This document shows positions 1-63,655 of a stretch of 64,000 nt of DNA, piece by piece (within the stretch, counting starts at the first letter, position 1; each line of letters begins with the position of its first letter). The stretch comes from Escherichia coli (GTDB lineage Bacteria; Pseudomonadota; Gammaproteobacteria; Enterobacterales; Enterobacteriaceae). The notes beneath the pieces were generated by a model, which searched no databases, was not told the DNA's origin, and saw nothing but the letters and a program-made list of their open reading frames with translations. A program made the position numbers and the translations under genes. The stretch lies in the NCBI RefSeq assembly GCF_022846255.1, contig NZ_AP025682.1; one strand, written 5' to 3'.

Positions 1-299
<299 letters not shown>

Positions 300-313
300 A
301 ACCTATTTCTTCA

Positions 314-3274
<2,961 letters not shown>

Positions 3275-3799
3275 TTGTCATCCCTCCTCAGGGACGTAAT
3301 AAGTTGATCCATCAATTATCAATGCATAGAAAACATATTATGTTTCGCGTTGACGATTATGCGGCGTTATAGAGGAATGGTTCAATTATTCTTTCCCCTA
3401 AGTCCGATTGCGGACATATATAAAGCACGTGAACACACACACAGAAAGAAATAACAAAAACACAATATTTCAATACGTTAATGAAAGCGTTAATTTTAAA
3501 ACATAGGCCATGAAAATATAAAACAACCAAAACAGACAAATAATGTATCAATAAGCAATGAACTTTAAGTCATTCACTTTTTGAAAACGTCACCAAATCT
3601 CCAAAAACAATAATCTATAGCTATAAATAAAAATTAAAAATATTTTCAATGAATATAAATTTATTGCTATTTCTATTACAAAGATGTCCTGACCTCTCAT
3701 TCATTCTCTTCTTGTCAACATCGCGACAACTTTCGTAAAACATCCCCACCCTGCTTCAGGTATACTATGCCCCTCGATTCCACAAACATCAGGCAGACC

Positions 3800-4774
3800 A
3801 TGACAGATTTAATCCAACGCCCTCGTCGCCTGCGCAAATCTCCTGCGCTGCGCGCTATGTTTGAAGAGACAACACTTAGCCTTAACGACCTGGTGTTGCC
3901 GATCTTTGTTGAAGAAGAAATTGACGACTACAAAGCCGTTGAAGCCATGCCAGGCGTGATGCGCATTCCAGAGAAACATCTGGCACGCGAAATTGAACGC
4001 ATCGCCAACGCCGGTATTCGTTCCGTGATGACTTTCGGCATCTCTCACCATACCGATGAAACCGGCAGCGACGCCTGGCGGGAAGATGGACTGGTGGCGC
4101 GTATGTCGCGCATCTGCAAGCAGACTGTGCCAGAAATGATCGTCATGTCAGACACTTGTTTCTGTGAATACACTTCTCACGGTCACTGCGGTGTGCTGTG
4201 CGAGCATGGCGTCGACAACGACGCGACTCTGGAAAATTTAGGCAAGCAAGCCGTGGTTGCAGCTGCTGCAGGCGCAGATTTCATCGCCCCTTCCGCCGCG
4301 ATGGACGGCCAGGTACAGGCGATTCGCCAGGCGCTGGACGCTGCGGGCTTTAAAGATACGGCGATTATGTCGTATTCGACCAAGTTCGCCTCCTCCTTTT
4401 ATGGCCCGTTCCGTGAAGCTGCCGGAAGCGCATTAAAAGGCGACCGCAAAAGCTATCAGATGAACCCAATGAACCGTCGTGAGGCGATTCGTGAGTCACT
4501 GCTGGATGAAGCCCAGGGCGCAGACTGCCTGATGGTTAAACCTGCTGGAGCGTACCTCGACATCGTGCGTGAGCTGCGTGAACGTACTGAATTGCCGATT
4601 GGCGCGTATCAGGTGAGCGGTGAGTACGCGATGATTAAGTTCGCCGCGCTGGCGGGTGCTATAGATGAAGAGAAAGTCGTGCTCGAAAGCTTAGGTTCGA
4701 TTAAGCGTGCGGGTGCGGATCTGATTTTCAGCTACTTTGCGCTGGATTTGGCTGAGAAGAAGATTCTGCGTTAA
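3800..4774 (+). CDS. hemB: porphobilinogen synthase (delta-aminolevulinate dehydratase)
   Basis: Translation from ATG 3800 ([24 protein letters not shown]...) matches HemB, 324 aa; ORF-track start at 3767 is an upstream extension. Confidence 0.93.
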
Positions 4775-4782
4775 TGTTCATT

Positions 4783-4806
4783 ATGCCGGGTTATCCAACC
4801 CGGCAT
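4783..4806. terminator. hairpin between convergent hemB and tauD (GCCGGGTT-N5-AACCCGGC)
   Basis: Inverted repeat directly after hemB stop (4772-4774) and before tauD stop (4814). Confidence 0.5.
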
Positions 4807-4813
4807 TTCCCCC

Positions 4814-5665
4814 TTACCCCGCCCGATAAAACGGTTTATCCCCAAGAATCGTCGCCCGATGCATAATCCGCCGCTGTGGCAGGTAATCCGCATTGGCATA
4901 GTGCTGAGTCACGCGGTTATCCCAAATCGCAATATCATTCGGTTGCCAGCGCCAGCGCACCTGAAACTCCGGTTTAGTGATATGGGCAAACAAAAAACCT
5001 AACAAGGCTTCGCTCTCTTTCTCGCTGACATCAACAATTCGTGTGGTAAAACCTTCGTTCACAAACAGCGCCTGTTTACCGGTCACCGGATGCGTTCGCA
5101 CCACCGGATGTAGCAACGGTGGATTTTTCGCGACCGCCTCACGCCAGCGTTGATGCTCAGCCTCGGTTTTGCGGTACTTGTATTCCGGGAACGATTTACG
5201 GAAATCATGCTCCGCACGCAACCCGCTCAACAGCTGGCGGAAGGGAACAGAGAGCGCCTCATATGCGGCAATACCACTGGCCCAGAGCGTATCGCCGCCG
5301 GTCGAGGGTAACTCTTTCGCCGCCAGAATCGCCCCTGCGGGTGGCGTTTGAATAAATGTCACATCGGTGTGCCAGTTGTCGTTATCCGGCGGATTATCGT
5401 TATGGGTATCCAGGACGATGATCTCGTCAACCCCTTCAGCATGAGGGTAAACAGGGTGAATATGCAGCTCGCCAAAACGCTGGGCCAGCGCGCGTTGCTG
5501 CTGCGGCGTAATAGCTTGATCGCGCAGAAACACCACATGATGGCGCAGCACCGCATGGTAAAGCTGTTCAAACTGATTATCGCTTAACGGGCGCGTTAAG
5601 TCGGCCCCCGTAATTTGTGCGCCAATATACGGCCCCAGCGGGGTAATGCTCAGACGTTCACTCAT
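4814..5665 (-). CDS. tauD: taurine dioxygenase (alpha-ketoglutarate dependent)
   Basis: 283 aa [21 protein letters not shown]...; last gene of tauABCD. Confidence 0.95.
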
Positions 5666-6489
5666 TGTACTTCTCCATGCCAGGGCGTCAGGCGGCGCTG
5701 TAACGCGCGCAGACCCAGTTCTAAAAGAAAGGCGATAATCGCAATCACCGCGATCCCCGCCAGCACCACGTCAGTCGCGAGAAATTCACCCGCTGACTGA
5801 ACCATAAATCCTAAACCGCGCGTTGCGGCAATCAGCTCCGCCGCCACCAGCGTAGACCAGCCCACACCCAGACCAATGCGTAATCCGGTGAGGATTTCCG
5901 GCAGCGCGCCGGGCAAAATGACAAACCACAGCACCTGCGCACGGCTGGCACCCAGCGACTGGGCGGCACGAATGCGAACCTGCTGCGCGCTTTTCACCCC
6001 CGCCAGCGCCGACATCGCCACCGGCGCAAAAATCGCTAGATAGATCAGTAAGATCTTCGAGGTTTCGCCAATACCAAACCAGATCACCATCAGCGGCAAA
6101 TAAGCCAGCGGCGGCACCGGACGATAAAGCTCGATTATCGGATCCAGAATGCCGCGCACCGTCGGGCTTAGCCCCATGGCGATCCCGACCGGAATACCGA
6201 TCAACACCGCCGCAAGTAGCGCCAGCAAAATGCGCGTCAGGCTGGCTGCCAGATGCTGCCACAGCGTGGCGTCCATAAATCCCTGCGGCCCGGCAATGGT
6301 GAGCAGTTTTGCCAGTACCTGTTGCGGTGGCGGCAAAAACAGCGGGCTAATCAGTTGCAGCGCCGCGACTGCCCACCATACAGTGAGCAAAACCGCTAAC
6401 GTACCAATGCTTAAGGTCACCTGACGCGAGAGCGGCCAGCGCCATTTCAGCCGATGCGAATGCAGTTTTTCATTAATGAGCACACTCAT
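5662..6489 (-). CDS. tauC: taurine ABC transporter permease
   Basis: 275 aa membrane protein; 4-nt overlap with tauD start. Confidence 0.95.
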
Positions 6490-7253
6490 GAGAACGCCTC
6501 CCGTTGCTCAAATACGCGGCTTAAAACATATTCGCGCATGGCGATGAATTGTGGATTGGACTTGATGCTGCGGCTCGACTCTCCCGCAACAAAGCGGCGA
6601 GCAAAGTTGAGTGGCAGCCGCTCCAGCACGCGGCCTGGGCCGGGTGAAAGCAGAACCAGTTCAGTCGCCATAAACACCGCTTCTTCTATATCGTGGGTAA
6701 TCAACAGCACCTGCTTTCCCGTCTCCTGCCAGAGTTTCAGCAGCAGGGTTTGTATCTGGTCGCGGGTGAAGGCGTCCAGCGCACCAAACGGTTCGTCGAG
6801 TAATAACAGCTGGGGATTTGCCGCCAACGCGCGGGCAATCCCCACCCGCTGACGTTGACCACCGGAAAGCTGCCAGATGTAGCGTTTTTCTGCGCCTTCC
6901 AGCCCGACTTTTTTCACCATCTGGTGTGCGATTTCCAGTCGCTGCATTTTCTCTACACCTGCCAGTTGCAGGCCGAACGCCACGTTGTCCTGTACATTGC
7001 GCCACGGTAACAACCCTTCATTCTGAAAAACTACGCCACGCTCTGCTCCCGGTCCCTGAATACCCTTACCCGCCAGTTGAATGCTGCCATGCTGATAAGG
7101 CACAAAACCAGCAATCAAATTCAGCAACGTAGTTTTGCCGCAGCCAGACGGCCCCAGAACTACCAGAAGCTCGCCGCTTTCCAGCGTCAGGTTGATATCT
7201 TCCAGTGCCGGTTTGCCGCCATAATCGGCGTAAAGATGAGAAATTTGCAGCAT
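6486..7253 (-). CDS. tauB: taurine ABC transporter ATP-binding protein
   Basis: 255 aa; Walker [10 protein letters not shown], signature LSGGQRQR; overlaps tauC start by 4 nt. Confidence 0.95.
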
Positions 7254-7265
7254 CTGCGCCTCCTT

Positions 7266-8228
7266 TTATTGCACGAAGCGCGAGGTAACGTACTGGCTGT
7301 AATCATTCGCTACAGCCGGGACTTTGCCCTGCTCTTTCAAAAACTGCGCGGTGTCGATGATCGCTTTGTTCACCGGTCCGGTCAGTTCTGCCGTTTGCTG
7401 CTGCGGCGTCAGATAGGTATTCCCCTTCACCAGCCCCGGAATGTCACCTTCCGGCACGCCGCTTAACCGCGCCAGTTTGCTGATGTTTTCCGGCTGTTTC
7501 AGCCACGCGTCTGGGTTAGCAATGTACGGTTGCTGAGCATCGATGGCGCTTTTAGCGAACGCTTTCACGACCTCAGGATGTTTCTCGGCAAAATCTTTCC
7601 GCACGACCCAGACGTCCAGTGTCGGCGCGCCCCACTGCCCGACCTGTTCAGAATCGGTCAGCACCTTGCCATCTTTTTCCAGGGCGTTAACCGCCGGTGC
7701 CCAGACATAAGCACCATCAATATCTCCCCGCTGCCATGCGGCGATAATTGCGGGCGGCTGCAGGTTCACAATCTCAACTTGCCCAGGTTTAATACCCCAG
7801 TGTTTCAGCGCCGCCAGCAGGCTGTAGTGGGTGGTGGAGATAAACGGTACGGCGATGCGTTTACCAATCAAGTCTTCCGGTTTACTGATAGTTTTCTTTA
7901 CCACCAGCGCTTCGGAGTTACCCAGTTTTGACGCCAGCAAGAAGACTTCAATCGGCACCTGTTGGCTGGTTGCAACCGCTAACGGGCTGGAACCGAGGTT
8001 GCCGATTTGCACGTCGCCCGAAGCCAGCGCCCGCACGATGCTGGCTCCACTGTCAAACTTACGCCAGTCCACGGTTGCTCCGCTTTCTTTAGCAAAGGTG
8101 TTGTCGGCCTGAGCCACTTTCGCCGGTTCGGCGGAGGTTTGATACGCCACGGTGACGTTCACCGCCTGCGCCTGAAAAGCGATGAATGCCAGTGCGGCAA
8201 GAAATGTGTTACGCGATGAAATTGCCAT
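7266..8228 (-). CDS. tauA: taurine ABC transporter periplasmic binding protein
   Basis: 320 aa with signal peptide MAISSRNTFLAALAFIAFQAQA. Confidence 0.95.
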   Translation of the reverse strand: MAISSRNTFLAALAFIAFQAQAVNVTVAYQTSAEPAKVAQADNTFAKESGATVDWRKFDSGASIVRALASGDVQIGNLGSSPLAVATSQQVPIEVFLLASKLGNSEALVVKKTISKPEDLIGKRIAVPFISTTHYSLLAALKHWGIKPGQVEIVNLQPPAIIAAWQRGDIDGAYVWAPAVNALEKDGKVLTDSEQVGQWGAPTLDVWVVRKDFAEKHPEVVKAFAKSAIDAQQPYIANPDAWLKQPENISKLARLSGVPEGDIPGLVKGNTYLTPQQQTAELTGPVNKAIIDTAQFLKEQGKVPAVANDYSQYVTSRFVQ

Positions 8229-8456
8229 GATTGTCTGCTCCCTTGTCTTGTTATGGGAGCAGTATTTCGTTGCGGGTAAGTTTGATAAAGGAATTAAAAC
8301 GTCTTGTTAATAACAAAGCGTTTTTAGAAAAAAATCGGCAATGGTTAGCGAGTTTGCGCATTTTGCTACTTTTAACAAACATCGCCTGATGTGGCGCTCA
8401 CGCCTCTTATCATGCCTACAAATACAGGGGCCGGATAAATTTTATTCTCCAGTGTT

Positions 8457-8511
8457 ATATACTATAGGGGGGTATGCATTGACATATAGCATACCCCCCT
8501 ATAGTATATTG
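8457..8511. promoter_or_regulatory. frmRAB promoter-operator: palindrome ATACTATAGGGGGGTATGC-N9-GCATACCCCCCTATAGTAT
   Basis: Near-perfect inverted repeat with G6/C6 tracts 25-75 bp upstream of the frmR ATG; this is the operator architecture of the RcnR/FrmR/CsoR family. Confidence 0.7.
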
Positions 8512-8533
8512 CATGCAGATGATGAGGTGCGAA

Positions 8534-8809
8534 ATGCCCAGTACTCCGGAAGAGAAGAAAAAGGTCCTTACTCGAGTTCGTCGTATTCGGGGGCAGATTG
8601 ATGCTCTGGAACGGTCGCTGGAGGGTGATGCCGAATGCCGTGCCATACTCCAACAGATCGCTGCCGTTCGGGGCGCGGCTAACGGGCTGATGGCAGAAGT
8701 GCTTGAAAGCCATATCCGGGAAACGTTTGACCGAAATGACTGCTACAGCCGCGAAGTCAGCCAATCCGTTGACGACACTATTGAACTGGTTCGTGCCTAT
8801 CTTAAATAG
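8534..8809 (+). CDS. frmR: formaldehyde-responsive transcriptional repressor
   Basis: 91 aa from ATG 8534 ([29 protein letters not shown]...). Confidence 0.92.
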
Positions 8810-8813
8810 CTGA

Positions 8814-9953
<1,140 letters not shown>

Positions 9954-10044
9954 TTTCCCGCAGGTTTACCCGTCCAGTTCAGACGGGGTTCTTAATACTC
10001 TCCCCGGGCAGCCGTCCGGGGGATTAACCGTGAGATAATGACTG

Positions 10045-10878
10045 ATGGAACTCATTGAAAAACATGCCAGCTTTGGCGGCTGGCAAAATGTGTATCGGCA
10101 TTATTCCCCATCACTGAAATGTGAAATGAATGTCGGCGTCTATCTCCCGCCAAAAGCCGCAAATGAAAAATTGCCGGTGTTGTACTGGCTTTCAGGCCTG
10201 ACCTGCAACGAGCAAAATTTCATTACTAAATCGGGGATGCAGCGTTACGCGGCTGAGCACAACATTATTGTTGTTGCGCCGGACACCAGTCCGCGAGGCA
10301 GTCATGTCGCAGATGCTGACCGTTACGATCTCGGGCAAGGTGCCGGATTTTACCTGAACGCGACGCAAGCGCCGTGGAATGAACATTACAAAATGTATGA
10401 CTATATCCGCAACGAGCTGCCGGATTTAGTGATGCAACATTTTCCGGCAACGACCAGAAAGTCTATCTCAGGTCATTCTATGGGCGGGCTGGGCGCGCTG
10501 GTGCTGGCGTTACGTAACCCAGATGAATATGTCAGCGTCTCGGCGTTTTCGCCCATTGTCTCCCCATCGCAAGTACCGTGGGGACAGCAAGCCTTTACCG
10601 CATATCTTGGTGAAAATAAAGAAGCCTGGTTGGATTACGACCCGGTGAGTCTTATTTCACAAGGTCAACGCGTTGCGGAAATAATGGTTGATCAGGGGTT
10701 GAGTGATGATTTTTACGCAGAACAGCTGCGGACTTCAAATCTTGAAAAGATCTGCCAGGAGATGAATATCAAGACGTTAATCCGTTATCACGAGGGTTAT
10801 GATCACAGCTATTATTTTGTCTCCAGTTTTATTGGCGAGCATATTGCGTACCACGCCAATAAACTGAATATGCGTTGA
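10045..10878 (+). CDS. frmB: S-formylglutathione hydrolase
   Basis: 277 aa esterase with GHSMGG serine motif. Confidence 0.95.
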   Translation: MELIEKHASFGGWQNVYRHYSPSLKCEMNVGVYLPPKAANEKLPVLYWLSGLTCNEQNFITKSGMQRYAAEHNIIVVAPDTSPRGSHVADADRYDLGQGAGFYLNATQAPWNEHYKMYDYIRNELPDLVMQHFPATTRKSISGHSMGGLGALVLALRNPDEYVSVSAFSPIVSPSQVPWGQQAFTAYLGENKEAWLDYDPVSLISQGQRVAEIMVDQGLSDDFYAEQLRTSNLEKICQEMNIKTLIRYHEGYDHSYYFVSSFIGEHIAYHANKLNMR

Positions 10879-10880
10879 GC

Positions 10881-11094
<214 letters not shown>

Positions 11095-11104
11095 TTATCT
11101 ATGT

Positions 11105-11644
11105 TTACCACATCAAATCATCAGGCACTTTGAAGTCGGCATACGGATCGTCTTCATCCTGCTCTTCGGCGCTGAGCGCGCTGTGCAACACAATACTGCT
11201 GGCATCACGCTGAGCAATTTTATCGGCAACACTGGCGGGAATAATGGCGTATTCACCTTCGCTATTGTTATCGACCAACAAGCGGGCAATCGCCAGACGA
11301 CCATTAATCAACTGCGCCTGTGTGAGCTTATCGACAAAAATCTTCTTAATCAGATTGCCGTCAGTGAAGTTAAAACCAATATCGCCATTGGCAATGGTGA
11401 TTCGGTTCATTTCAATGAGCTGCTTCACCTGGGCTTTATATTCTTTCGCCAACGCCGCTTGTTTTTGCTGTTCGCTAAGCTGTTTATCACGCTCAAGCTG
11501 TGCCTTTTTATTTTCTTCTACCGCCGCCCGAGCTTCACGCGCCTGAACGCGCGATTTTTTCGCCGTTCTCTCGACCTTCGCCGCTTTTTTGCTGGTGACT
11601 AATCCTGCTTTGAGCAACTGCTCTTGTAAGGTAAGTTTTGCCAT
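11105..11644 (-). CDS. yaiL: DUF2058-family protein YaiL
   Basis: 179 aa from ATG 11644 (MAKLTLQEQLLKAGLVTSKK...); ORF-track start at 11761 is an upstream extension. Confidence 0.85.
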   Translation of the reverse strand: MAKLTLQEQLLKAGLVTSKKAAKVERTAKKSRVQAREARAAVEENKKAQLERDKQLSEQQKQAALAKEYKAQVKQLIEMNRITIANGDIGFNFTDGNLIKKIFVDKLTQAQLINGRLAIARLLVDNNSEGEYAIIPASVADKIAQRDASSIVLHSALSAEEQDEDDPYADFKVPDDLMW

Positions 11645-11745
11645 CTTTGTTTCCAAACCCGCTGAATAATTTTTAGCGAGTATACCTGTAAACGCCGTAG
11701 GTGTATTGGGGGCAAGTCCCTTTCGCCCCTGCTTAATAAGGCGCG

Positions 11746-12957
11746 TCAGGCATCGGCGCACGGCTGCATTCGTGATCTCCGGCTCATCAAAATAAATACT
11801 GCCAGGCCAGCAACAAGAATACCCGGCGCAGAAGCGGCCATTACGCCAACCGTGCCAATGCCTAATGCCAGCATTTTCCCGGCCAGTAACGGACCGCTCA
11901 TAGCCCCCAGACGCCCTACCGCCACGGCTGTTCCCACACCTGTTGCGCGGATCTGCGAACTGTAAAACAACGGTGCCAGGGCATACAAAACGCTTTGCCC
12001 ACCTGTCGCAAACAACCCCGCGACGAATCCCGCCAGCAACATACCGTTAAATGACGACACCGTTCCCAGCGCCAGCAGCGAAGCTAACATGCCGCTATAA
12101 ATCAGTAACGACATGGTTACTGGACGCAGCTTATCCATCAATGCGCCCAACATTAACGTCCCGCTTGCCGCCCCCATTTGCAGTGCAAACATCACCCCTG
12201 CCGCCTGCGATGGCTGGAATCCTTGCTCCACCAAAAGCAGCGGTAGCCAGTTGATCAACATGTAGACCACCAGCAGAGTGAAGAAATAACACAACCACAG
12301 CAGCAGCGTCGCGGTTGCCGTTTCTGGCGCAAATAACGCACGCAGTGGTGGCGCAGCCTGTTTTTCGCCAGCGAACACCGCCGACTCCGGCAGCCAGCGC
12401 ATTAATAGCGGCACCAGAATCAACGGCACCACACCACCTACCCAAAACACCGTTTGCCATGCTAAGTTTGCCCCCGCGAAACCCAGTGTCGCCGCCAGCG
12501 CCGCGCCAATGGGGACACCGCAATACATCAGGCTCACTGCCGTCCCACGAAAACGTGGACCCGCGGCTTCAGACGTCAGGGCGATCAGATTCGGCAACGC
12601 CGCCCCCAGCCCGACACCGGTCATCAGCCGCGCAAAGACCAGTGAGGGGAAATCCCAGGCAATCGCCGTTGCCAGTGAGAACAAACCAAACAGCGCAACT
12701 GAGCCAATCAAAATGCGCTTGCGACCATAACGGTCCGCCAGCATTCCGCCAACCAACGCGCCGGGTAGCAAACCGAGTATTCCGGCGCTGAATATCCAGC
12801 CCATTTGCATTTTATCGAGTGCGAAAGCCTGGGCGATGCCACCCGCCGCAATGCCAGCCGCCTGAAGATCCAGTCCTTCCATCAGAGCGACCAAAAAACA
12901 AAGCCCGATGGTCAGCATCAGGCGGGTTGAAGATGATGAAGGGGTACGAGTCGACAT
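11746..12957 (-). CDS. mhpT: 3-(3-hydroxyphenyl)propionate transporter (MFS)
   Basis: 403 aa from ATG 12957 (MSTRTPSSSSTRLMLTIG...); multiple transmembrane segments. Confidence 0.9.
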   Translation of the reverse strand: MSTRTPSSSSTRLMLTIGLCFLVALMEGLDLQAAGIAAGGIAQAFALDKMQMGWIFSAGILGLLPGALVGGMLADRYGRKRILIGSVALFGLFSLATAIAWDFPSLVFARLMTGVGLGAALPNLIALTSEAAGPRFRGTAVSLMYCGVPIGAALAATLGFAGANLAWQTVFWVGGVVPLILVPLLMRWLPESAVFAGEKQAAPPLRALFAPETATATLLLWLCYFFTLLVVYMLINWLPLLLVEQGFQPSQAAGVMFALQMGAASGTLMLGALMDKLRPVTMSLLIYSGMLASLLALGTVSSFNGMLLAGFVAGLFATGGQSVLYALAPLFYSSQIRATGVGTAVAVGRLGAMSGPLLAGKMLALGIGTVGVMAASAPGILVAGLAVFILMSRRSRMQPCADA

Positions 12958-13052
12958 AAGATGAACCTCGTTGCGAGTGCAGGTGAATCGCGGCTGATAC
13001 ATTGTCAGCCGCGTAATCAGAACCATTTAATGACTGCCTACGGGCGAAATAT

Positions 13053-13085
<33 letters not shown>

Positions 13086-13132
13086 GTCGTGCTGGGATGG
13101 GCATACAAAATGCACGTTCTCGGCAGTCATCA

Positions 13133-14142
13133 TTATTTGTTGTTGCGCAGATCCAGCGCCACGTCGACGATCATATCCTCCTGGCCGCCAACCATCCGGC
13201 GTTTGCCCAGCTCAACGAGAATATCCACCGCGCTTAAGCCATAACGCGCCGCCGCCGTTTCACAGTGACGCAGGAAGCTCGAGTAAACACCAGCGTATCC
13301 CAGCGCCAGCGTTTCGCGATCGACTCGTACCGGTCGATCCTGCAACGGACGCACCAGGTCGTCAGCGGCATCCATTAACGCATAGAGATCGGTCCCATGC
13401 TGCCAACCCAGTTTATCCGCGGCGGCAATAAAAACTTCCAGCGGCGCGTTACCTGCGCCCGCGCCCATTCCCGCGAGGCTGGCGTCGATTCGGTCGCAGC
13501 CCTCTTCCACCGCCGCGATAGAGTTCGCCACGCCAAGACTCAGGTTATGGTGAGCGTGTATGCCGGTTTGCGTTTCTGGTTTCAGCACTGCTTTCAGAGC
13601 GCGGAAACGGTCACGGATATCGCTCATGTTCATCGCACCGCCAGAATCCACCACATAAATACAGGTCGCACCGTAGCCTTCCATCAGCTTTGCCTGCTTT
13701 GCGAGATTCTCCGGCGTGGTCATATGGCTCATCATCAGAAAACCAACGGTGTCCATTCCGAGCTCGCGAGCATACTGAATATGCTGGGCGGAAACATCAG
13801 CTTCGGTACAGTGCGTAGCCACACGAACCACCCGCGCGCCAGCCTGCCAGGCATTTTTCAGATCGTGAATAGTGCCGATTCCAGGCAGCAACAACGTCGC
13901 GATTTTGGCGTGCTTCACCACATCCGCCGCCGCTTCAATCCATTCAAGGTCGCTATGTGCGCCGAAACCATAGTTAAAGCTGGAACCTTGCAAACCGTCG
14001 CCGTGGGCCACTTCAATCGAATCCACGCGGGCATCGTCCAGTGCTTTGGCAACCTGGAGAACGTTTTCCAATGAATACTGATGACGAATGGCGTGCATAC
14101 CGTCACGCAACGTGACGTCCGAGATATAAAGTTTTTTACCGT

Positions 14143-14146
<4 letters not shown>
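13133..14146 (-). CDS. mhpE: 4-hydroxy-2-oxovalerate aldolase
   Basis: 337 aa; overlaps mhpF by 4 nt. Confidence 0.95.
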
Positions 14147-15908
<1,762 letters not shown>

Positions 15909-16775
15909 TTAAGGGCGTGCGAGGAAATTCAGCACCAGTTGATTGAAAGCGTCGGCATGTTCCCACTGCGCCCAGTGACCACAGTCGCGGAAGATATGCA
16001 GTTCAGAACCGGCAATGCCGGACAGCAGACGCAGACCCGCATCCATCGGCACAAAGCGGTCGTTGCGCCCCCAGACAATCAGGGTTTGCGCTTTGATTTC
16101 CGCCAGACGTGGGCCAAAATCCGGGAACTGTTTCGGATTGGCTTCCAGGCTCTTAACGAAGTTTTCCAGGTGATCGCGGCGCGACAGCATATTATTCAGG
16201 CGCGCTTCAAACAGGGCGTCGGTCAAATCGCTGGTATCAAAAACGAAGATATCCATCATCAGCTTCAGGTTTTCGATAGTCGGCTGACGATAAAGCTGAT
16301 TCAGTCGCTTAATACCTTCGGTTGGCATCGGCGTAAACAAACTCATGCCGCCCGTACCGCCGCCCATCAGCACCAGTTTGCCGACGCGCTCCGGCCAGTT
16401 AAGGGTGAACGCCACAGAACTGTGGCCGCCCATCGAGTTGCCCAGCAGGTGGATTTTGGCGATATCCAGTTGATCCACCACGCTTTTCAGGATTCGCGCA
16501 TTAAGATCCGATCGTGAACCACTATTAACGATCGAATCGCTCTTACCCCAACCCGGACAATCCAGCAGGATCACCCGATAGCCCGCCTTTACCAGCGGAT
16601 CGATATTGCGGCTGAAGTTCGCCCAGCCAGTAGCACCCGGGCCGGAACCATGCAGCAGGACAACAGTTTCGTCGCCTTGTCCGCAGTCATTAAAATGGAT
16701 GCGCAGCGTTTTACCCGCTTCTTCTACATTCAGAAAACGGCTGGTGGCGGCTTCGGTTTGTGGCTGATAACTCAT
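15909..16775 (-). CDS. mhpC: 2-hydroxy-6-ketonona-2,4-dienedioate hydrolase (alpha/beta hydrolase)
   Basis: 288 aa from ATG 16775 ([14 protein letters not shown]...); GNSMGG nucleophile elbow. ORF-track start at 16838 is an extension. Confidence 0.93.
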
Positions 16776-16792
16776 CATCTTCTCCTGCATAT

Positions 16793-17737
16793 TCAGTTCT
16801 CTGTTCTGGCGCTTAACGAGCCAAATCCGGCAATCCACTCCGGGATTGGGCGGTAATAACGCCCTTCGCTACGCCAGTTGCCAAACGCAGAAATAGCGGC
16901 AAAAGCGGCGACCCAGGTTTTGATTTCATGTGTCGACTTTCCGGCAATGGCGGAAAGCTCTTCGTTACTGACGGCATCCAGTTCCTGTATGCGTCCCTGC
17001 TCCAGCAAAGTCATGAACTGGTTATCCCAAATCGGGTTGAGCGGATGCAGCGTTCTCTGATCCTCAACAAACTTCTCAGCGGCGCTAATCACCCGTTGCT
17101 GACGCAATTCGCGCTCACTGGCGGGTAAATCTTTCCCGCTCCCCAACAGACGGTCGCGCATATGGGCATCGGCTTTCGCCAGTTCTGGCACCGGCGGCTG
17201 ATGGGAAAGCCCACCGGAACCCAGGAACAGCACGCGTTTATTGAGAGTACTGGTGAAACGTCCAATGGCTTCCCCCAACATGCGGGTACGCTGGAAACCG
17301 GGCAACGGCGTGGCGACACCGTTGATGAACACAGGCAGAACCGGCACCTTATCCAGCCCACCGAGCAGGAACTCCAGCGGCTGGGCGAACCCGTGGTCCA
17401 CCTGCATACAGTAAGAAACGGCAAGATCGATTCCGCTCTTCATGACGGCATGCGCACAGGCCTCCGCCAGCTCAACAGGCACGGGCAGCTCTCCTGCCGC
17501 ACTACCGAAATCACCAATTGCCGTCGCTCCAACGCCTAAACAGAACGGTGGCATCACGTCATAGAAAAAGCCGTTGTAGTGATCTGGCGCAAACAGCACC
17601 ACCAACTCAGGGGAGAAAGCCGCAATACGCTCGCGGGCGCTGGCAATCACGCCATTGACCTCATCGAGCACCTCTTGCGCCGGGTCGACATATCCCACCA
17701 GCGGCGAGTGGGAAAGACAGTGAAGATAAGCGTGCAT
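16793..17737 (-). CDS. mhpB: 3-(2,3-dihydroxyphenyl)propionate extradiol dioxygenase
   Basis: 314 aa. Confidence 0.95.
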
Positions 17738-17738
17738 A

Positions 17739-19403
17739 TCAGGCTACCTTTTCGACAGAAACGTCGGCATCAGGGCGGGTCAGCGTCATTACCGACGCCA
17801 GTTTATTCAGCATATTACCCAGAGTTTGCGGAATGGCGGTGGCGGCAACAAAGCGATCCGGGCGCATCACCACCAGCGAAGCATTGTGTTGCGCGAACCA
17901 GCTACGCAGGCGACCTTGCGTATCGCCCACGCGTAGTACGCCGTCGTGGTTATCCTGTGCGGTATGAATTTGCACTTCCGGCACCACCTGAATGAAGCGT
18001 GTGCCCAACGCGCGCCACTGCTGGATTTGCTCGTCGCTCATCCCCCACAGTGGATTGCATCCCCAGCCAATTACCGCGAAGTTCGCGCCGATCGCGTTAT
18101 CGAGCAGCGTCACGTCGCCGTTTTCCAGCGTGACTTTCGGCTGAATAAACATCTTGCCGACCGGAGAGTGCTTCGCTTCGCCCTCACGCACCAGCGCACC
18201 GCCGTAATATTGCGGCATCGGCTTGAAGCGCATTTCGAGGAAGTAGCGTTTTACTGGCGGCAGATAATTCAACAGCCAGGAAACGCCGTCACGTAACGTA
18301 CCCTGCCAGCGTTTCGGCGGAGCCAGCACGTTGCCCGCCGTCACGGACAGGTCAATCATCGCTTTGGCGTGATCGCGACGTTCTTGTTGATAGGTATCGA
18401 GCAGCGCATCGCGGGCTTTCCCCTGGATAACCAACGCCAGTTTCCATGCGAGGTTAAAGGCGTCGCGCATACCACTGTTATAGCCCTGCCCCTGCCACAC
18501 CGGCATGATGTGCGCGGCATCGCCCGCCAGCAGTACGCGATCAATACGAAAACGTTGCGCCAGTCGCGCGTTGTGGGTGTAGACACGCTGGCGAATCAAT
18601 TCAACATTGTCCGGATTAGGCAGCACTTTGCTTAACAGCTTGCGCATATTTTGCGGCTCACGCAGCTGTTCTTCGGTTTCTCCCGGCATCACCATAAATT
18701 CAAAGCGACGTACCGCATGAGGCAGCGCGGCAGAAACATACGGGCGCACCGGATCACAACACAAATAGATATGCGGCGTACTTAACGGATCGTTGGCGAT
18801 ATCTACCACAATCCACTGATTTGGCGCGGTTTTACCTTCAAACGGTACATTCAGGGTGCGACGAACAAAACTTGCCCCACCATCACAGGCCACCAGCCAC
18901 TGAGCTTTGACCGTTTCCCGCTGCCCTTCTGCCGTTTTCAGGTGCAAGGTCACTTCGTCATCTTGCTGGCTGAAGGCCTCCAGCTCGCGGGAAAACAAGC
19001 AGCGCACATTCGGAAAACGCGACAATCCTTCCAGCATCACCGCATCGACCTGCGGCTGAATAAAGGCGTTACGGCGCGGCCAGCCAAATTCATCGGTCAT
19101 TGGCTGAATATCAGCAAAACAGCGGCCTTTTGGAGTAAGAAAACGCATCGCATGCCACGGCGTAGTGTGCGGCAGAACATTATCAACCAGGCCAACCGAC
19201 TGCATGGTGCGCAGCGCCTCGTCATCAATACCAATCGCACGCGGGTAGTCGATCAACTTATCGAGTTTCTCCACCACCAGCACGTCAATGCCCATCTGGC
19301 CGAGATAGTTCGCCATCATCAGCCCAACCGGACCGGCACCAGCGATCGCCACCTGAACGCTATGGTTAACAGCAGGCTGGATGTCAGGGTGTTGTATTGC
19401 CAT
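17739..19403 (-). CDS. mhpA: 3-(3-hydroxyphenyl)propionate hydroxylase (FAD monooxygenase)
   Basis: 554 aa; FAD-binding [13 protein letters not shown] near N-terminus. Confidence 0.95.
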
Positions 19404-19544
19404 TTCAGTACCTCACGACTCGGACAAAATGCCGTTGCGCGCACAGTACGGCGCAACTTATTTTGTTAAAAACATGTAAATGATTTTTTATTGTGCGCTC
19501 AGTATAGGAAGGGTGTTTTCGGCTACAATCAAAACATGCCCGAA

Positions 19545-19561
19545 TGTGCACCATGTGCACA
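19545..19561. promoter_or_regulatory. 17-bp imperfect palindrome TGTGCACCATGTGCACA in the mhpR/mhpA divergent region (candidate MhpR operator)
   Basis: Inverted GTGCAC half-sites read directly; matches my memory of the MhpR site as a 17-bp GTGCAC-containing palindrome. Confidence 0.5.
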
Positions 19562-19593
19562 ACGTTGTTTTAACTATAGAAATGTCAATTAAT

Positions 19594-20427
19594 ATGCAGA
19601 ACAATGAGCAGACGGAATACAAAACCGTACGCGGCTTAACCCGCGGTCTAATGTTATTAAATATGTTAAATAAACTTGACGGCGGTGCCAGCGTCGGGCT
19701 GCTGGCGGAACTCAGCGGCCTGCATCGCACCACTGTGCGGCGACTGCTGGAGACGCTGCAGGAAGAGGGATATGTCCGGCGTAGTCCCTCCGATGATAGT
19801 TTCCGTTTGACCATCAAAGTGCGGCAATTAAGCGAAGGATTTCGTGACGAACAGTGGATTTCTGCACTGGCGGCCCCATTGCTGGGCGATCTGTTGCGCG
19901 AAGTGGTTTGGCCAACAGATGTGTCCACCCTGGATGTTGATGCAATGGTGGTACGCGAAACCACCCACCGTTTCAGCCGCTTATCCTTTCACCGGGCAAT
20001 GGTCGGGCGACGGTTACCGCTTCTGAAAACCGCCTCGGGCCTGACCTGGCTGGCCTTTTGCCCCGAACAAGAACGCAAGGAATTAATCGAGATGTTAGCC
20101 TCCCGCCCCGGTGATGACTATCAACTGGCACGGGAACCGTTAAAACTGGAAGCCATTCTGGCGCGGGCGCGCAAAGAGGGGTACGGACAGAACTACCGCG
20201 GCTGGGATCAAGAAGAAAAGATCGCCTCTATTGCCGTACCGCTGCGCAGTGAACAACGGGTGATTGGCTGTCTGAATCTGGTGTATATGGCGAGCGCAAT
20301 GACCATTGAACAGGCAGCGGAAAAACATCTTCCGGCGCTACAACGGGTGGCAAAACAGATCGAAGAAGGGGTTGAATCGCAGGCTATTCTGGTGGCCGGA
20401 CGGCGAAGCGGCGTGCATTTACGTTGA
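19594..20427 (+). CDS. mhpR: IclR-family activator of the mhp operon
   Basis: 277 aa from ATG 19594 (MQNNEQTEYKTVRGLTRGLMLLNML...); an alternative ATG at 19582 cannot be excluded. Confidence 0.9.
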   Translation: MQNNEQTEYKTVRGLTRGLMLLNMLNKLDGGASVGLLAELSGLHRTTVRRLLETLQEEGYVRRSPSDDSFRLTIKVRQLSEGFRDEQWISALAAPLLGDLLREVVWPTDVSTLDVDAMVVRETTHRFSRLSFHRAMVGRRLPLLKTASGLTWLAFCPEQERKELIEMLASRPGDDYQLAREPLKLEAILARARKEGYGQNYRGWDQEEKIASIAVPLRSEQRVIGCLNLVYMASAMTIEQAAEKHLPALQRVAKQIEEGVESQAILVAGRRSGVHLR

Positions 20428-26765: not shown

Positions 26766-26778
26766 ATAAGCAAAATTA

Positions 26779-26849
26779 CCTGATGCGCTCCGCTTATCAG
26801 GCCTACAATTTCAGTGATCTACGTAGGCCGGATAAGGTGTTCACGCCGC
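26779..26849. repeat. REP pair between lacA and codA
   Basis: CCTGATGCGCTCCGCTTATCAGGCCTAC ... GTAGGCCGGATAAGGTGTTCACGCCGCATCCGGC. Confidence 0.75.
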
Positions 26850-26885
26850 ATCCGGCATAAACTACGCTCGCGGTAGCCCAGCCGA

Positions 26886-40320: not shown

Positions 40321-41277
40321 TTAAACCACCCGATCCAGCCCCAACATGCCGCGAGCCTGAATGAAACAGAGCAGCAACGTTCCCCATAAGGCCATCGTCA
40401 GGTAGGGGCTTATACCGAGAATATTGAAGCCGCTTTCAATAATTTGCAGAAGAAACAGCGCCAGCACCATACCAATTATCCGCCCGCTGCCGCCGTCCGG
40501 ATTAACCCCGCCGAGTACTGCCGCGAGGATTGACACCAGCAAGTACGATTCGCCATAAGAGGCCTTAGCCGAGTTGAGTTTCGACATCATCAAAAATGCC
40601 GCTACCGCACAAAGCAAGGCGGAAATGACATACACCCATATCAGCACCCGACGAGTGTTAATACCGGAGTAAAGTGTTGCTCGTTCGTTAGAACCAATCA
40701 GATAAATGGCTTTACCGAGCGGCGTTTTCTCCAGCAATATCCACAGCCCCAGCGCCACTGCGGTAAACAACCACATCGGTAGCGGAATACCGAACCACTG
40801 TGCATGATTCAACCACAGCACCCATGAGGGATAATTGGCAATGGCGCTACCGCCTGTCACCAGAATATTTACCCCTTTGAGCAACGTCATCATCCCAAGC
40901 GTTGCAAGAATTGGCGACACTCGAATACCAGCAATCAATACGCCGTTACATAAACCGATTATCACCGCCGCGCCAGCGCCTGCCAGTAACGTAGCGACAA
41001 CCGTAGCAATACCCGGTGGATACTGAGTCGCCACCCACGCCATCACCAGTGAACAGGCGTTAGCAGTGGCTATAATTGACAAGTTAATGCCACCGCAAAG
41101 CATGGTCACCGCCATAGCCAACGCCAGAATGCCCAGCACGGGCATTTGCGAAGCGACGGACTGGAAATTACTTATCGACCAGAAAATCTCCGGCATAGTA
41201 ATGCTGAAGGCGGCAACAGTTAGCACCAGCAGGCCGATCAAGTAAAACTCAACGTTATTACGCCACGATTTTTTCAT
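40321..41277 (-). CDS. sugar ABC transporter permease (RbsC/LsrD-like)
   Basis: Polytopic membrane protein; ATG at 41277 overlaps the stop of the upstream permease as ATGA. Confidence 0.8.
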   Translation of the reverse strand: MKKSWRNNVEFYLIGLLVLTVAAFSITMPEIFWSISNFQSVASQMPVLGILALAMAVTMLCGGINLSIIATANACSLVMAWVATQYPPGIATVVATLLAGAGAAVIIGLCNGVLIAGIRVSPILATLGMMTLLKGVNILVTGGSAIANYPSWVLWLNHAQWFGIPLPMWLFTAVALGLWILLEKTPLGKAIYLIGSNERATLYSGINTRRVLIWVYVISALLCAVAAFLMMSKLNSAKASYGESYLLVSILAAVLGGVNPDGGSGRIIGMVLALFLLQIIESGFNILGISPYLTMALWGTLLLCFIQARGMLGLDRVV

Positions 41278-42245
41278 AGCAGACTCCGGTTCTGATGCTG
41301 ACTCCACGCCGTGGCGCTAATGCTGGCAACGATGATGATGCCAGTGATCAATGTTTGCCAGTAAGACGAGACTCCCAATAAATTTAGCCCGTTTTGCATC
41401 ACTGCCAACAACACCACGCCGAGCAAAGTACCGGTTAACGTGCCGCGCCCGCCGAGCAAACTAGTGCCGCCAAGCACCACCGCAGCCAGTACTGTCAGCT
41501 CATAACCCAGAAGAGAATCGGGGGCGACAGTCATCACCGTCCACGACTGCACTACACCCGCAGCACCAGACATCAATCCCATATAGCCATAGACGAAAAG
41601 TTGCAGTTTCAGCACACTAAAGCCGATGCGACTGGCTGATTCGCGGTTCCCGCCAAGGGCATAAATTTTGCGCCCTACACTGGTGAAATTCATGATAAAC
41701 GCTGTTAGCAGCACCACCGTAATCATGGCGATCAGCGGTAGACCAAGGCCATAGTCATAGCCATCAGCATCGGTGTACTTGAACAACATAACCCCCTGCT
41801 CAAACCACGGCGGAAAGTCGTACAGCCACACACCTTTACTCAACCATAACAGCAGGCCATAGAAAATATTCAGCGTCGAGATAGTGATGATGATAGAAGG
41901 CACCCGTAGGCGATTAACCAGTAAGGCGTTAATTAAGCCAAGTAAAATGCCGATGCCGCCCGCCAGTGCAAACGCGACAGCAAAGTTACCACCCATTTTT
42001 TGCAGCAACAGCACCATGCCGTATTGCGCAATGATGGTCATTGCTGGAAACGAAATATCAATTCCACCGGAAATCAACACCACAAACAAACCACAGGCGA
42101 GAATAGTCAACATGGCATAGTTATTGGCGAGATCGTACAAATTACCGAATGTCAGAAACTCGTCGCTGCGCCAGGCAAGGCCGACAAACAGCCCCACAAT
42201 CAGTAATGCCAGCCAGAATTCATGACGTTTTTTCAGTTCAGCCAT
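41274..42245 (-). CDS. sugar ABC transporter permease (RbsC/LsrC-like)
   Basis: 323 aa polytopic membrane protein; start overlaps the ATPase 3' end by 8 nt. Confidence 0.8.
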   Translation of the reverse strand: MAELKKRHEFWLALLIVGLFVGLAWRSDEFLTFGNLYDLANNYAMLTILACGLFVVLISGGIDISFPAMTIIAQYGMVLLLQKMGGNFAVAFALAGGIGILLGLINALLVNRLRVPSIIITISTLNIFYGLLLWLSKGVWLYDFPPWFEQGVMLFKYTDADGYDYGLGLPLIAMITVVLLTAFIMNFTSVGRKIYALGGNRESASRIGFSVLKLQLFVYGYMGLMSGAAGVVQSWTVMTVAPDSLLGYELTVLAAVVLGGTSLLGGRGTLTGTLLGVVLLAVMQNGLNLLGVSSYWQTLITGIIIVASISATAWSQHQNRSLL

Positions 42246-43722
42246 TTACCACCTCCGCAATCCTGGCCTGAGAACTGCTGTCAGGCAGGAAGCTATGGGT
42301 GATCTGACCTTTTTGCATTACCAAAATCCGGTGGCTTTGATACCACGCTTCTTCAATTTCATCGCAGATCATCAATACCGCAATGCCATGAGCCGCCAGA
42401 TCGCTGATAATGCCGTATATTCCTGCTTTGTTGGCGATATCAACACCGACTGTCGGGCTATCGAGAATCAACAGTCGTGGCCCAATCGCCAGCCATTTGG
42501 CGATCGATACTCGCTGCGCGTTACCACCAGAAAGCGTATTCACCGGGAGATGTGGGTCAGAGACTTTGATGGTCAATGCCTTGATTAGCCTGTCCACCAG
42601 GTCACGCACTTTAGCTTCACTCAGAAAGCCGAAGCGATCTTTTACCTTGTGAAAAACAGTGCTAATGATGTTGTCTTCAATAGATTGCGCCATCACCAAA
42701 CCGCGCGACATGCGATCTTCCGAAACATAACCAATACCGTGGCGGATGGCGTCCTGGTTACTATGCAGTGTAACCGGCTGACCGTTGATGAGGATCTCGC
42801 CAGCATCCGGTCGGGTCATACCAAACAGACTCAGACATAATTCCGTGCGCCCCGCACCAAGCAGGCCAATAATCGACACCACTTCGCCCGCTTCCACCCG
42901 CAAGTTAATATTTTGATATTCCCCATGACGACTTAAATTACGCACCTCCAGCACTGGGATGCTGGATTTTCCCTGCCACAACTCTCGTACCTGATATTCA
43001 AACTCCTGGCCGGTCATCAGGAAACCGAGTTGTTTTGTGGTCATCTCTGCAGCCGGAAAGGTCCCGACCAGCTCACCATCTTTCAGCACTGAAATACGGT
43101 CGGAAACTTCCATCACCTCTTCCAGACGATGACTGACGAAGACCACGCAGATCCCGCGTTCCCGCAATTGATGCACCACCTGTAATAACCCTTGCACTTC
43201 CTGATGGGTCAGCGAAGCGGTTGGTTCATCCATCACAATCAACCGTGCGTCCTGCGCCAGTGCACGGCAAATTGCCACCAGCTGACAGCGGGCAATTGAA
43301 AGCTCAGAAACGAGCGTATCCAGTGGCAATGTGACGTTAACACTGGTCATTGCCGCCTGCGCCACCTCACGCAGACGACGTCGGTTAACAAACAGACCGT
43401 GGTGATAGTGATTCACGGCGATATTCTCCCAGACACTCAGGTTAGGAAATAAAGAGAGGTCCTGATAAATCACCTGAATCCCCTGCGCCACCGAAGCGGC
43501 GGGTGTCAGCTTTGACCAGTTTTTCCCACCAAGCGTAATTTCCGCTCCCTCATCCGGGCGATAAACACCGGACATAATTTTAATCAACGTCGATTTACCA
43601 CAGCCGTTTTGCCCGGCAAGGCAGTGCACTTCACCCGACATAAAGTCGAGAGAAACATCGCGCAGCGCTCGCGTGGCATGAAACGTTTTGTTGATATGAC
43701 GAAGGGAAAGGAAGGTTTCCAT
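42238..43722 (-). CDS. sugar ABC transporter ATP-binding protein with two fused ABC domains (RbsA/LsrA-like)
   Basis: From ATG 43722 (METFLSLRHINKTF...), preceded by AGGGGA; Walker A GQNGCGKST, second domain GLLGAGRTEL, signature LSGGNAQR. Confidence 0.85.
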   Translation of the reverse strand: METFLSLRHINKTFHATRALRDVSLDFMSGEVHCLAGQNGCGKSTLIKIMSGVYRPDEGAEITLGGKNWSKLTPAASVAQGIQVIYQDLSLFPNLSVWENIAVNHYHHGLFVNRRRLREVAQAAMTSVNVTLPLDTLVSELSIARCQLVAICRALAQDARLIVMDEPTASLTHQEVQGLLQVVHQLRERGICVVFVSHRLEEVMEVSDRISVLKDGELVGTFPAAEMTTKQLGFLMTGQEFEYQVRELWQGKSSIPVLEVRNLSRHGEYQNINLRVEAGEVVSIIGLLGAGRTELCLSLFGMTRPDAGEILINGQPVTLHSNQDAIRHGIGYVSEDRMSRGLVMAQSIEDNIISTVFHKVKDRFGFLSEAKVRDLVDRLIKALTIKVSDPHLPVNTLSGGNAQRVSIAKWLAIGPRLLILDSPTVGVDIANKAGIYGIISDLAAHGIAVLMICDEIEEAWYQSHRILVMQKGQITHSFLPDSSSQARIAEVVNG

Positions 43723-43770
43723 AACATCCCCTGGCAATAAGAATCGGGGCTTTCGCCCCGAAGAAATGGA

Positions 43771-44757
43771 TTAATAAAGTGAGTCGATATTGTCTTTGTT
43801 GACCAGTAATACCTTATGGAAACGGATAATTCGCTTATCCATATCTACGTCGGCCTTCCCCAGATTCTGCATTTCTAATCCAGGTTTGATCTCTTCACCC
43901 TTCAGCAACGTGCTGGCGACGGCTGCGAGTGCGTAACCTGCAGAGGCCGGATCGTAAGTAATCCCTTCGGTGATATCACCACTTTTAATCAGTGATGCCG
44001 CCTGTGAAGGAATCATCATGCCATAGACTGCGACTTTATTTTTCGCCCGTTTCTCTTTCACTGCACGTCCCGCGCCAATCGGACCGTTTGAACCAAAGGA
44101 GACAACCGCTTTCAAGTCAGGATAGGTTTTCATCAGGTCCAGTGTGGTACGACGTGAGTCATCCACACTCTCGGCAACCGGCATGCGGCGGGTAACTTCA
44201 TGCATATCCGGGTAATGCTCTTTCTGGTATTTCACCAGCAAGTCAGCCCATAAGTTATGCTGCGGCACGGTCAAACTACCCACGTAAATCACATAGCCGC
44301 CCTTGCCACCCATGCGTTTCGCCATATGTTCAACATATTCAGCGGCAAATTTTTCGTTATCAATGATTTCGATATCCCAGTTAGCACTTAGCTGACCGGG
44401 GGATTCGTTGGTCAGAACCACAATTCCGGCATCTCGCGCTTTTTTGAATACCGGTTCCAGCACGTTGGCATCGTTTGGCACAATTGTAATTGCATTAACC
44501 TTACGGGCGATTAAATCCTCAATAATTTTAACTTGTTGCGGAGCATCAGTACTTGAAGGCCCCACCTGTGACGCATTAACACCAAAGGCTTTACCCGCCT
44601 CAACCACACCTTCGCCCATGCGATTAAACCACGGCATACCATCGACTTTAGAGATATTCACCACGACTTTTTCCGCTGCCTGGAGCGGCGCAGAAATTAG
44701 CGCAGCGCCTAATAACAGCGAAGACACCATATTGATAACAAAACGTTTATTCATCAT
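43771..44757 (-). CDS. periplasmic sugar-binding protein, LsrB/RbsB-like
   Basis: 328 aa with signal peptide MMNKRFVINMVSSLLLGAALISAPLQA; N- and C-terminal blocks resemble LsrB (...NKDNID...). Confidence 0.8.
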   Translation of the reverse strand: MMNKRFVINMVSSLLLGAALISAPLQAAEKVVVNISKVDGMPWFNRMGEGVVEAGKAFGVNASQVGPSSTDAPQQVKIIEDLIARKVNAITIVPNDANVLEPVFKKARDAGIVVLTNESPGQLSANWDIEIIDNEKFAAEYVEHMAKRMGGKGGYVIYVGSLTVPQHNLWADLLVKYQKEHYPDMHEVTRRMPVAESVDDSRRTTLDLMKTYPDLKAVVSFGSNGPIGAGRAVKEKRAKNKVAVYGMMIPSQAASLIKSGDITEGITYDPASAGYALAAVASTLLKGEEIKPGLEMQNLGKADVDMDKRIIRFHKVLLVNKDNIDSLY

Positions 44758-45003
44758 TTCAGCCTCATTGCAGGGTAGTCAGGAAGTGTTCGCCCAAATT
44801 AGCGCGCTGGAGAGAATAAGAATTTTCGAATATTTTTATGCAGAATAAACAGCCCTATTTCAGGCAGCTATTAAAAATTTGGTTATAAATATGGACAAAA
44901 CGGGCAGCAACAATAAGTGTGATAATCATCACGTAAAAAACAGCAAAATAAACAAAATTAGCGATACTTTATGTTTGTGAGCTTATTTCGCGTAGAAAAA
45001 TAG

Positions 45004-45418
45004 TTATCTACACAACGTCAATAAGGGCATATTCTTCAAAGATAACGTCCATTTCGGGTGAATAGCATCCTTCTGCCTGGAAAAAACGACGGTGTTCATT
45101 ACGCCAATATTCAAGACTGAGGTCACCTTCACCTTCCTTACGGGCAAGCTCTGCGGTGACATCAGAAAAGCGCAGTAAATGCAGGCCAATCACTCTGATA
45201 ACACAGACAGGCTCACCACGGCTATTTTCTACAATCTTATACTCACCAATCAGCGGAAATGCGTTGTCTTCAATACATCCCGCCAGCGAACCACAGGAAG
45301 CTGTTTTAACACCAGTCGCAATCAACGTTGCGAGGTGATCGGCCAACGCTGCTGAATCGCCAAAAGTACAAAAGGAAGCATGGGGATATTTTTGTGAGAT
45401 TTTTTCTTTTATGGTCAT
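45004..45418 (-). CDS. small cytoplasmic protein, possibly ASCH/PUA-like
   Basis: about 138 aa from ATG 45418 (MTIKEKISQKYPHASF...); fold assignment is a weak guess from motif resemblance. Confidence 0.4.
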
Positions 45419-45717
45419 GAGAATATTTTCGCGATTACGGAAAAACAAATCACATCTTAATTACTGTTGATAACCATCAGCAAGAAGATCATTGGTTTTT
45501 CGATGCTTAATCTTTTTTATCCGAAGCAGGTCACATTTATGGCTTGATAAATATCTTTGTTAAAACTCACTTTTGTGTATTTCTCTCAAATAATCCCCTG
45601 GAAATTACGCCCGGAGATTATAAAGTTCAGGATCATTCATTAGCAAACCATTGCTGCCCCACTCCCTGGGGCTTTAAATCTCTTACTGTTCACCATTGCA
45701 GGCGTTTCAAATGCGTA

Positions 45718-63602: not shown

Positions 63603-63635
63603 AGGCACACTTATCTGGGTGTGCCTCTTTTTTTT
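63603..63635 (+). terminator. strong intrinsic terminator: stem AGGCACAC/GTGTGCCT, 8-nt loop, then 8 T
   Basis: Read directly; ends 20 bp upstream of the recombinase ATG. Confidence 0.7.
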
Positions 63636-63655
63636 ACAACTGTACACGGTGGCGT

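Follow-up and report, generated by a model that had tools for sequence, protein, structure and literature searches.

The short tauA–frmR junction of an Escherichia coli genome is probably a pre-existing empty allele of a three-state replacement slot

The window, a stretch of 64,000 nucleotides of Escherichia coli DNA, carries tauA and frmR next to each other in divergent orientation. The start codon of tauA appears as CAT on the plus strand and ends at position 8228, and the ATG of frmR lies at 8534. An initial annotation had described the two genes as adjacent with about 300 bp between their starts, and our analysis agrees, the exact gap being 305 bp (8229–8533). No credible ORF exists within 8229–8533, and tauA and frmR are collinear and intact without a gene between them. 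TauA is 99% identical to TauA of K-12 (tblastn) and FrmR is 100% identical to its K-12 counterpart. The region comprises the following features, the three alleles being the empty allele of the window, a K-12-type cassette allele, and an O-island 20 (OI-20) allele.

7266–8228, minus strand: tauA, taurine ABC transporter binding protein, intact ORF of 320 aa
8229–8266, minus strand: tauA leader, common to all three alleles (blastn, alignments)
8267–8366, minus strand: tauA regulatory region of the family-wide type (alignment; homology with O157 extends to 8366)
8367–8430, plus strand: 64-bp module, present only in empty alleles
8384–8419, plus strand: solitary REP element, GCCTGATGTGGCGCTCACGCCTCTTATCATGCCTAC (REP regular expression, 1 substitution)
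8431–8533, plus strand: frmR promoter, operator, and leader (alignment)
8534–8809, plus strand: frmR, intact, 91 aa
8844–9953, plus strand: frmA, downstream of frmR
10045–10878, plus strand: frmB, downstream of frmA

The K-12 block yaiO - yaiX/IS2 - yaiP - yaiS is indeed missing here, as had been reported in the initial annotation. In K-12 MG1655, 5,350 bp lie between the frmR start and the tauA start, and this stretch holds yaiO, yaiX split by IS2A, yaiP, the small ykiC, and yaiS. The annotation of strain E2348/69 places tauA and frmR at an equal distance of 305 bp. However, the gap is not made up mostly of frmR operator and promoters, as had been thought; these occupy about 80–100 bp, i.e., about a quarter to a third of it, whereas about 138 bp (8229–8366) are tauA leader and regulatory DNA and 64 bp (8367–8430) form the REP-containing module. 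Our literature search found nothing specific on the tauA–frmR junction or on the function of yaiO, yaiP, or yaiS.

On the frmR side, position 8431 is the limit of homology in all three alleles (CGGATAAATTT...). The frmR operator contains a perfect 21-nt inverted repeat (8457–8477/8489–8509) with G6/C6 tracts. The -35 element TTGACA at 8479 lies in the spacer of this repeat and the -10 element TAGTAT (8502–8507) in its right arm, the frmR promoter being overlapped by the large inverted repeat that the operator motifs form. Published tandem type I FrmR sites of Pfrm consist of ATAC, a G-C tract, and GTAT (PMC5146963), and the predicted operator of the window for the CsoR/RcnR-type FrmR matches such sites. 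An Rfam search of the gap gave no match at gathering score; spurious hits of miRNA hairpins to the operator palindrome remained far below it.

On the tauA side, the K-12-type allele is homologous to the window up to 8266, whereas in the empty and OI-20 alleles homology extends to 8366. An alignment of sequences upstream of tauA from Citrobacter, Klebsiella oxytoca, Enterobacter, E. albertii, O157, the window, K-12, and E. whittamii indicates that the type of regulatory region found at 8267–8366 is common to the OI-20 allele, E. albertii, Citrobacter, Klebsiella, and Enterobacter. Its counterpart in the cassette alleles of K-12 and E. whittamii is divergent (roughly 60% identical by eye), and the tauA regulatory haplotype linked to the cassette (locus L001:9060-9195, K-12) is farther from that of the window than the Klebsiella and Enterobacter versions are. 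A clean deletion of a K-12-type locus, one of two origins that the initial annotation had considered, is incompatible with this arrangement: the 164 bp at 8267–8430, i.e., 100 bp of tauA regulatory region and the 64-bp REP module, have no counterpart in the K-12-type allele, and therefore the empty allele cannot be derived from the K-12 type by deletion.

In blastn-short searches across the compared loci, the 64-bp module matches empty alleles only, and among the 60 matches listed no partial junction match covers 8367–8430. The OI-20 and cassette alleles and 80 outgroup loci were rejected as a source of the module; only an unrelated REP was found there. The REP at 8384–8419 is an imperfect palindrome of 36 nt with a CTAC tail that folds into a hairpin at -11.5 kcal/mol, and it shows about 81% identity to the REPs that lie between yaiL and frmB in K-12. 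It is extragenic, and 14 further REPs occur in intergenic regions of the window, giving at least 15 in all. In E. albertii, the arms of the REP at the junction differ, yet the hairpin still forms. The element resembles the REP/BIME repeats of E. coli in its 36-nt imperfect palindrome, its GCCTGATG...CATGCCTAC layout, and its extragenic position. REPs usually sit at the 3' ends of operons. Unlike a BIME, the REP of the window is single within 8229–8533 and is located not at the 3' end of an operon but between two divergent promoters. Elsewhere in the window, four REPs of alternating sequence types lie between frmB and yaiL (10895–11081) in a BIME-like arrangement, where many indels and SNPs exist with respect to E2348/69, 2015C-4136CT1, and BLSE177-2012.

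The junction shows none of the marks expected of a mobile element scar. There are no direct repeats flanking 8366/8367 or 8430/8431, no target-site duplication, and no remnants of terminal inverted repeats at the breakpoints, the only inverted repeats of the gap being the operator, one tauA-side palindrome, and a leader stem. No tRNA gene occurs within positions 1–20000 and no integrase gene is nearby, the flanking genes being tauABCD and frmRAB. One might expect that a site-specific or REP-targeted mechanism, involving a RAYT transposase or a REP-targeting IS, had left the REP as an excision footprint or attachment site, since the REP is situated exactly at the junction and since two Citrobacter species have non-orthologous REPs upstream of tauA at this boundary. 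We consider this very improbable, as neither target-site duplication nor terminal inverted repeats, transposase, or integrase are found, as the two copies of the cassette described below have only four genes and no ends in common, and as the left breakpoints are unequal between alleles (8266 vs 8366). Orthology between the REP of the window and the Citrobacter REPs upstream of tauA was rejected because the latter are in the opposite orientation.

Slot states were tallied with junction-specific probes in 5,426 complete E. coli genomes, empty-junction matches being counted at a query coverage of at least 80%. The cassette state (yaiS-yaiP-yaiX-yaiO, with yaiO adjoining frmR) is found in 4,279 genomes (79%), the OI-20 state (fusKR, uhpC-like, afuABC) in 519 (9.6%), 451 of them with an O157-type junction, and the empty state in 594 (10.9%), which include E2348/69 and ST131. 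Together, the three junctions account for 99.4% of the 5,426 genomes. A 1.3-kb probe across the gap is matched contiguously in 595 of these genomes, best in the EPEC strain E2348/69 (99.7%), and in all remaining genomes the match falls into a tauA part and a frmR part. The insert of strain 401656 is the yaiS-yaiP-yaiX-yaiO cassette without IS2, and among the matches listed IS2 within yaiX is confined to K-12 derivatives. A 7.8-kb insert with genes for a response regulator, a MASE1 histidine kinase, a UhpC-like protein, and AfuABC is found in O157 and others; it is O-island 20, which comprises FusKR and the sugar-phosphate transporter AfuABC (PMC4546632). An insertion in K-12, the other origin offered by the initial annotation, is refuted by the cassette being the majority state (4,279/5,426) and by its presence in E. 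whittamii as well. Thus, the reported absence of the K-12 block stands but neither proposed origin fits, the choice between clean deletion and K-12 insertion being too simple because the slot has three states.

The mutS-rpoS region of E. coli is a multi-allelic intergenic replacement, in which unrelated inserts or none are found between conserved flanks, and its alleles are patchy across phylogroups and exchanged through flank homology. The tauA–frmR slot resembles this pattern, although locus and gene content differ. It is a gene-content polymorphism of a kind well known in E. coli, at a site catalogued as OI-20, which figures among the replacements of O-islands and K-islands (Perna 2001, as cited in PMC4546632), O-island 20 of EHEC O157:H7 standing against a K-12 island. 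OI-20 of O157:H7 occupies the same slot with the same right boundary (8431 of the window) and has the tauA side in common up to 8366. The window lacks both OI-20 and the K-12 insert and has the 64-bp REP module in their place. The junctions of E2348/69 (NC_011601.1) and ST131 have the same 305-bp gap, REP, and breakpoints at 99.1–99.7% identity, the junction region of the window differing from theirs by 2–6 SNPs; the window possesses the mhp operon, whereas E2348/69 does not. The empty allele is already present in hundreds of public genomes, and the locus is an ordinary slot of the accessory genome. An assembly artefact, i.e., a collapsed contig join, can for practical purposes be dismissed, as 594 complete genomes have the same junction and two other species show it in assemblies made independently.

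A scan for TauA with one genome per GTDB species gave 80 loci, and no genome bearing the name E. fergusonii, E. marmotae, or E. ruysiae was recovered by it. The 305-bp tauA–frmR gap recurs in E. albertii and Escherichia sp. E1V33, with the REP in the same position, and in the alignment the breakpoints of the empty allele and the 64-bp module are alike in the window, E2348/69, E. albertii, and E1V33. The empty allele of E. albertii is 92% identical, and this divergence of about 8% is close to that of the genes flanking it. In E. whittamii, the slot is occupied by the cassette, and in SCPM-O-B-8794, a divergent genome labelled E. coli, by OI-20, so that each of the three states has at least one representative among Escherichia genomes other than typical E. 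coli. A block of fusRK, uhpC-like, and afuABC genes is located directly upstream of tauA in most Citrobacter species, in the Klebsiella oxytoca group, and in Raoultella, as well as in several genomes of Enterobacter, Leclercia, Lelliottia, and Silvania (outgroup loci L012-L072 of our set; OI-20 of E. coli is at L003:9832-17624). In none of the outgroup genomes with this block beside tauA is frmR found within 10 kb. This synteny across genera makes the OI-20/tauA arrangement the oldest detectable state. The empty allele keeps the OI-20-type sequence on the tauA side and is at least as old as the split between E. coli and E. albertii. In contrast, the cassette allele has a divergent tauA regulatory region of its own and would seem to be a replacement that came from a more distant source. 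A review of 2024 describes FusKR as laterally acquired and present in O157:H7 (PMC11644481). Judging from the sequence comparisons, an ancestral OI-20 that was subsequently lost in most E. coli would fit better than an acquisition specific to EHEC.

A cassette probe is matched at a coverage of at least 80% in 4,810 genomes, as compared to 4,279 with the cassette in the slot, and 571 of the best hits are only 90–95% identical. These diverged copies reside in an island adjoining cobU/cobS (for example L006:7944-11150 and L093:6295-9501 of our locus set), which also holds a TonB-dependent receptor, IbrA/IbrB-like genes, and IS66/IS4 remnants. Island and in-slot copies are about 90% identical, with homology restricted to the four genes. 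The cassette proteins are a PIG-L deacetylase, a GT2 glycosyltransferase, a hexapeptide-repeat acetyltransferase, and the YaiO outer-membrane barrel. The PIG-L deacetylase of the island is intact (220 aa), and in the slot it is shorter (YaiS of K-12, 185 aa) or annotated as truncated pseudogenes. The glycosyltransferase is PgaC/IcaA-like (E = 9e-29, below the family cut-off), and the cassette may have an exopolysaccharide-type function. About 30 cassette matches are on plasmids. A probe combining the core of the empty junction with the island flank found 876 genomes at 1,450 places, which implies the island flank in about 856 genomes and the presence of both elements in about 574 of the 594 empty genomes. 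According to these combined-probe counts, about 97% of the empty genomes carry an island copy; in one ST131 genome, the island cassette is intact. However, because a few clones such as ST131 dominate among the empty genomes, this co-occurrence may reflect phylogenetic hitch-hiking and is not independent evidence of selection. That the three states constitute an ancient trans-species polymorphism under selection, the cassette being lost preferentially where the cobU-island paralogue is present, in a functional relocation, is conceivable at best as a speculative reading.

Over positions 1–25 kb, the best match to the window is DETEC-S792 at only 99.0%, and all of the best 40 matches have yaiP. 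In a comparison with DETEC-S792, 12 SNPs occur among 3,269 aligned bp at 4801–8069, 40 SNPs among 2,540 aligned bp at 8070–10773, across the gap, and 3 SNPs among 7,727 aligned bp at 10774–18500; the patch (40/2,540) differs from its flanks (15/10,996) with p = 4e-18 (Fisher). Strain 2012C-4502 has the alleles of DETEC-S792 within the patch and the window alone differs. At 8070–9500, the window differs from the empty strain 2015C-4136CT1 at 6/1,431 sites and from 401656 at 3/1,267 sites, and it is closest to haplotypes without the mhp operon, as in E2348/69. At 9501–10773, the right third of the patch, it is 1.6–2.3% away from every close reference compared, about equally, and among these references no exact donor of the patch was found. 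To the right of 10774, the window matches DETEC-S792/2012C-4502 and not E2348/69-like strains. The 2.7-kb patch (8070–10773) would thus represent a recombination tract carrying the empty allele. The initial annotation had named, as a finding that would refute its reading, the presence of these genes at this position in close relatives with identical flanks, and this is the case, strains with near-identical flanks (DETEC-S792, 2012C-4502, and 401656) carrying them at the slot. The cassette in these strains points to a recent allele swap in or near the lineage of the window, using the ancient empty allele. The direction of the swap is inferred, not proven: it is suggested by the patch being peculiar to the window and by the presence of the cassette in all its local relatives, but an import of the cassette into the DETEC-S792/2012C-4502 haplotype could just as well have produced the patch.

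It should be considered that the whole 64-kb region is mosaic, and “nearest relative” therefore has only a local meaning. Identity to complete E. coli genomes does not rise above 99.0% over 1–25 kb or 97.8% over 39–64 kb, divergence from any single reference varies from 0.05% to 5% per 2 kb, and the nearest reference switches every few kb between DETEC-S792-like and ST131-like segments. DETEC-S792 was rejected as a close relative at the whole-genome level, since it is 2–4% diverged beyond 22 kb. It also has IS200C between frmA and frmB (L088:13866-14324), which the window lacks. Other differences in gene content exist along the window. The cynRTSX operon is absent at 26774–26856, where lacA abuts codA with REP-like elements at the join; this arrangement without cyn is also found in the ST131 strain BLSE177-2012, whereas DETEC-S792 and K-12 have cyn. 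At about 38962/38963, yahL (344176-344991 of K-12) is missing at a clean break in the K-12 alignment. A 5.2-kb segment between yahK and yahJ (40393–45654), absent from K-12, encodes a sugar ABC transporter (binding protein, fused ATPase, and two permeases), rhamnose/AI-2/ribose-like but below family cut-offs, and a 146-aa ORF; the segment is present in DETEC-S792 and only a remnant exists in ST131. K-12 homology ends after betA, and the last 1.4 kb (62585–64000) has no ORF of at least 80 aa; at 62001–64000, about 10% of the aligned positions differ from the ST131 locus (L095). Within the gene for the autotransporter EhaB (1501–2500), the window is nearly identical to DETEC-S792 and shows about 20% divergence over 1 kb from O157, E2348/69, and E1V33, which suggests allelic replacement of a part of ehaB, probably of the portion for the passenger domain.

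The structure of the allele, its population frequencies, its occurrence in other Escherichia species, and the SNP patch across the gap, all of which are direct observations, lead us to the view that the window most likely holds a pre-existing empty allele of a three-state replacement slot, which was placed there by recombination and not by a fresh deletion. The slot lies between the divergent promoters of tauA and frmR, its other states being the yaiS-yaiP-yaiX-yaiO cassette and O-island 20, and the empty allele is composed of an Enterobacteriaceae-typical tauA regulatory region, one REP, and the frmR operator/promoter. Transfer of the allele from one lineage to another would occur by homologous recombination within flanks that are conserved (tauA on the left and frmRAB on the right), and such recombination, rather than a fresh deletion, would have put it into the haplotype of the window. 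Loss of the cassette from the slot may be tolerated since another copy is retained elsewhere in most of these genomes. A fresh clean deletion of a K-12-type cassette in the lineage of the window might be proposed, given that the closest haplotypes on both flanks carry the cassette, but it is highly improbable: 8267–8430 is missing from K-12-type alleles, 594 genomes and two further species of Escherichia possess the identical junction, and the gap sits inside a foreign SNP patch. It is rather unlikely, though worth weighing, that the empty state was inherited vertically in the lineage of the window and that DETEC-S792 and 2012C-4502 imported the cassette. Vertical inheritance would be in line with the great age of the empty allele, with the mosaicism of the entire region, and with the fact that a SNP patch does not by itself reveal a direction. 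However, the cassette gene yaiP is shared by all of the best 40 matches over 1–25 kb, DETEC-S792 and 2012C-4502 agree with each other in the patch where only the window deviates, and the window is DETEC-S792/2012C-4502-like to the right of 10774 and yet E2348/69-like at 8070–9500.

Two further points are of use for the biology of E. coli. Absence of yaiO–yaiS from the slot does not mean absence from the genome. In addition, K-12 is the strain in which the regulation and promoter of tauA were characterized, and its tauA promoter is an atypical haplotype, the form conserved in Enterobacteriaceae being the one carried by empty and OI-20 strains.
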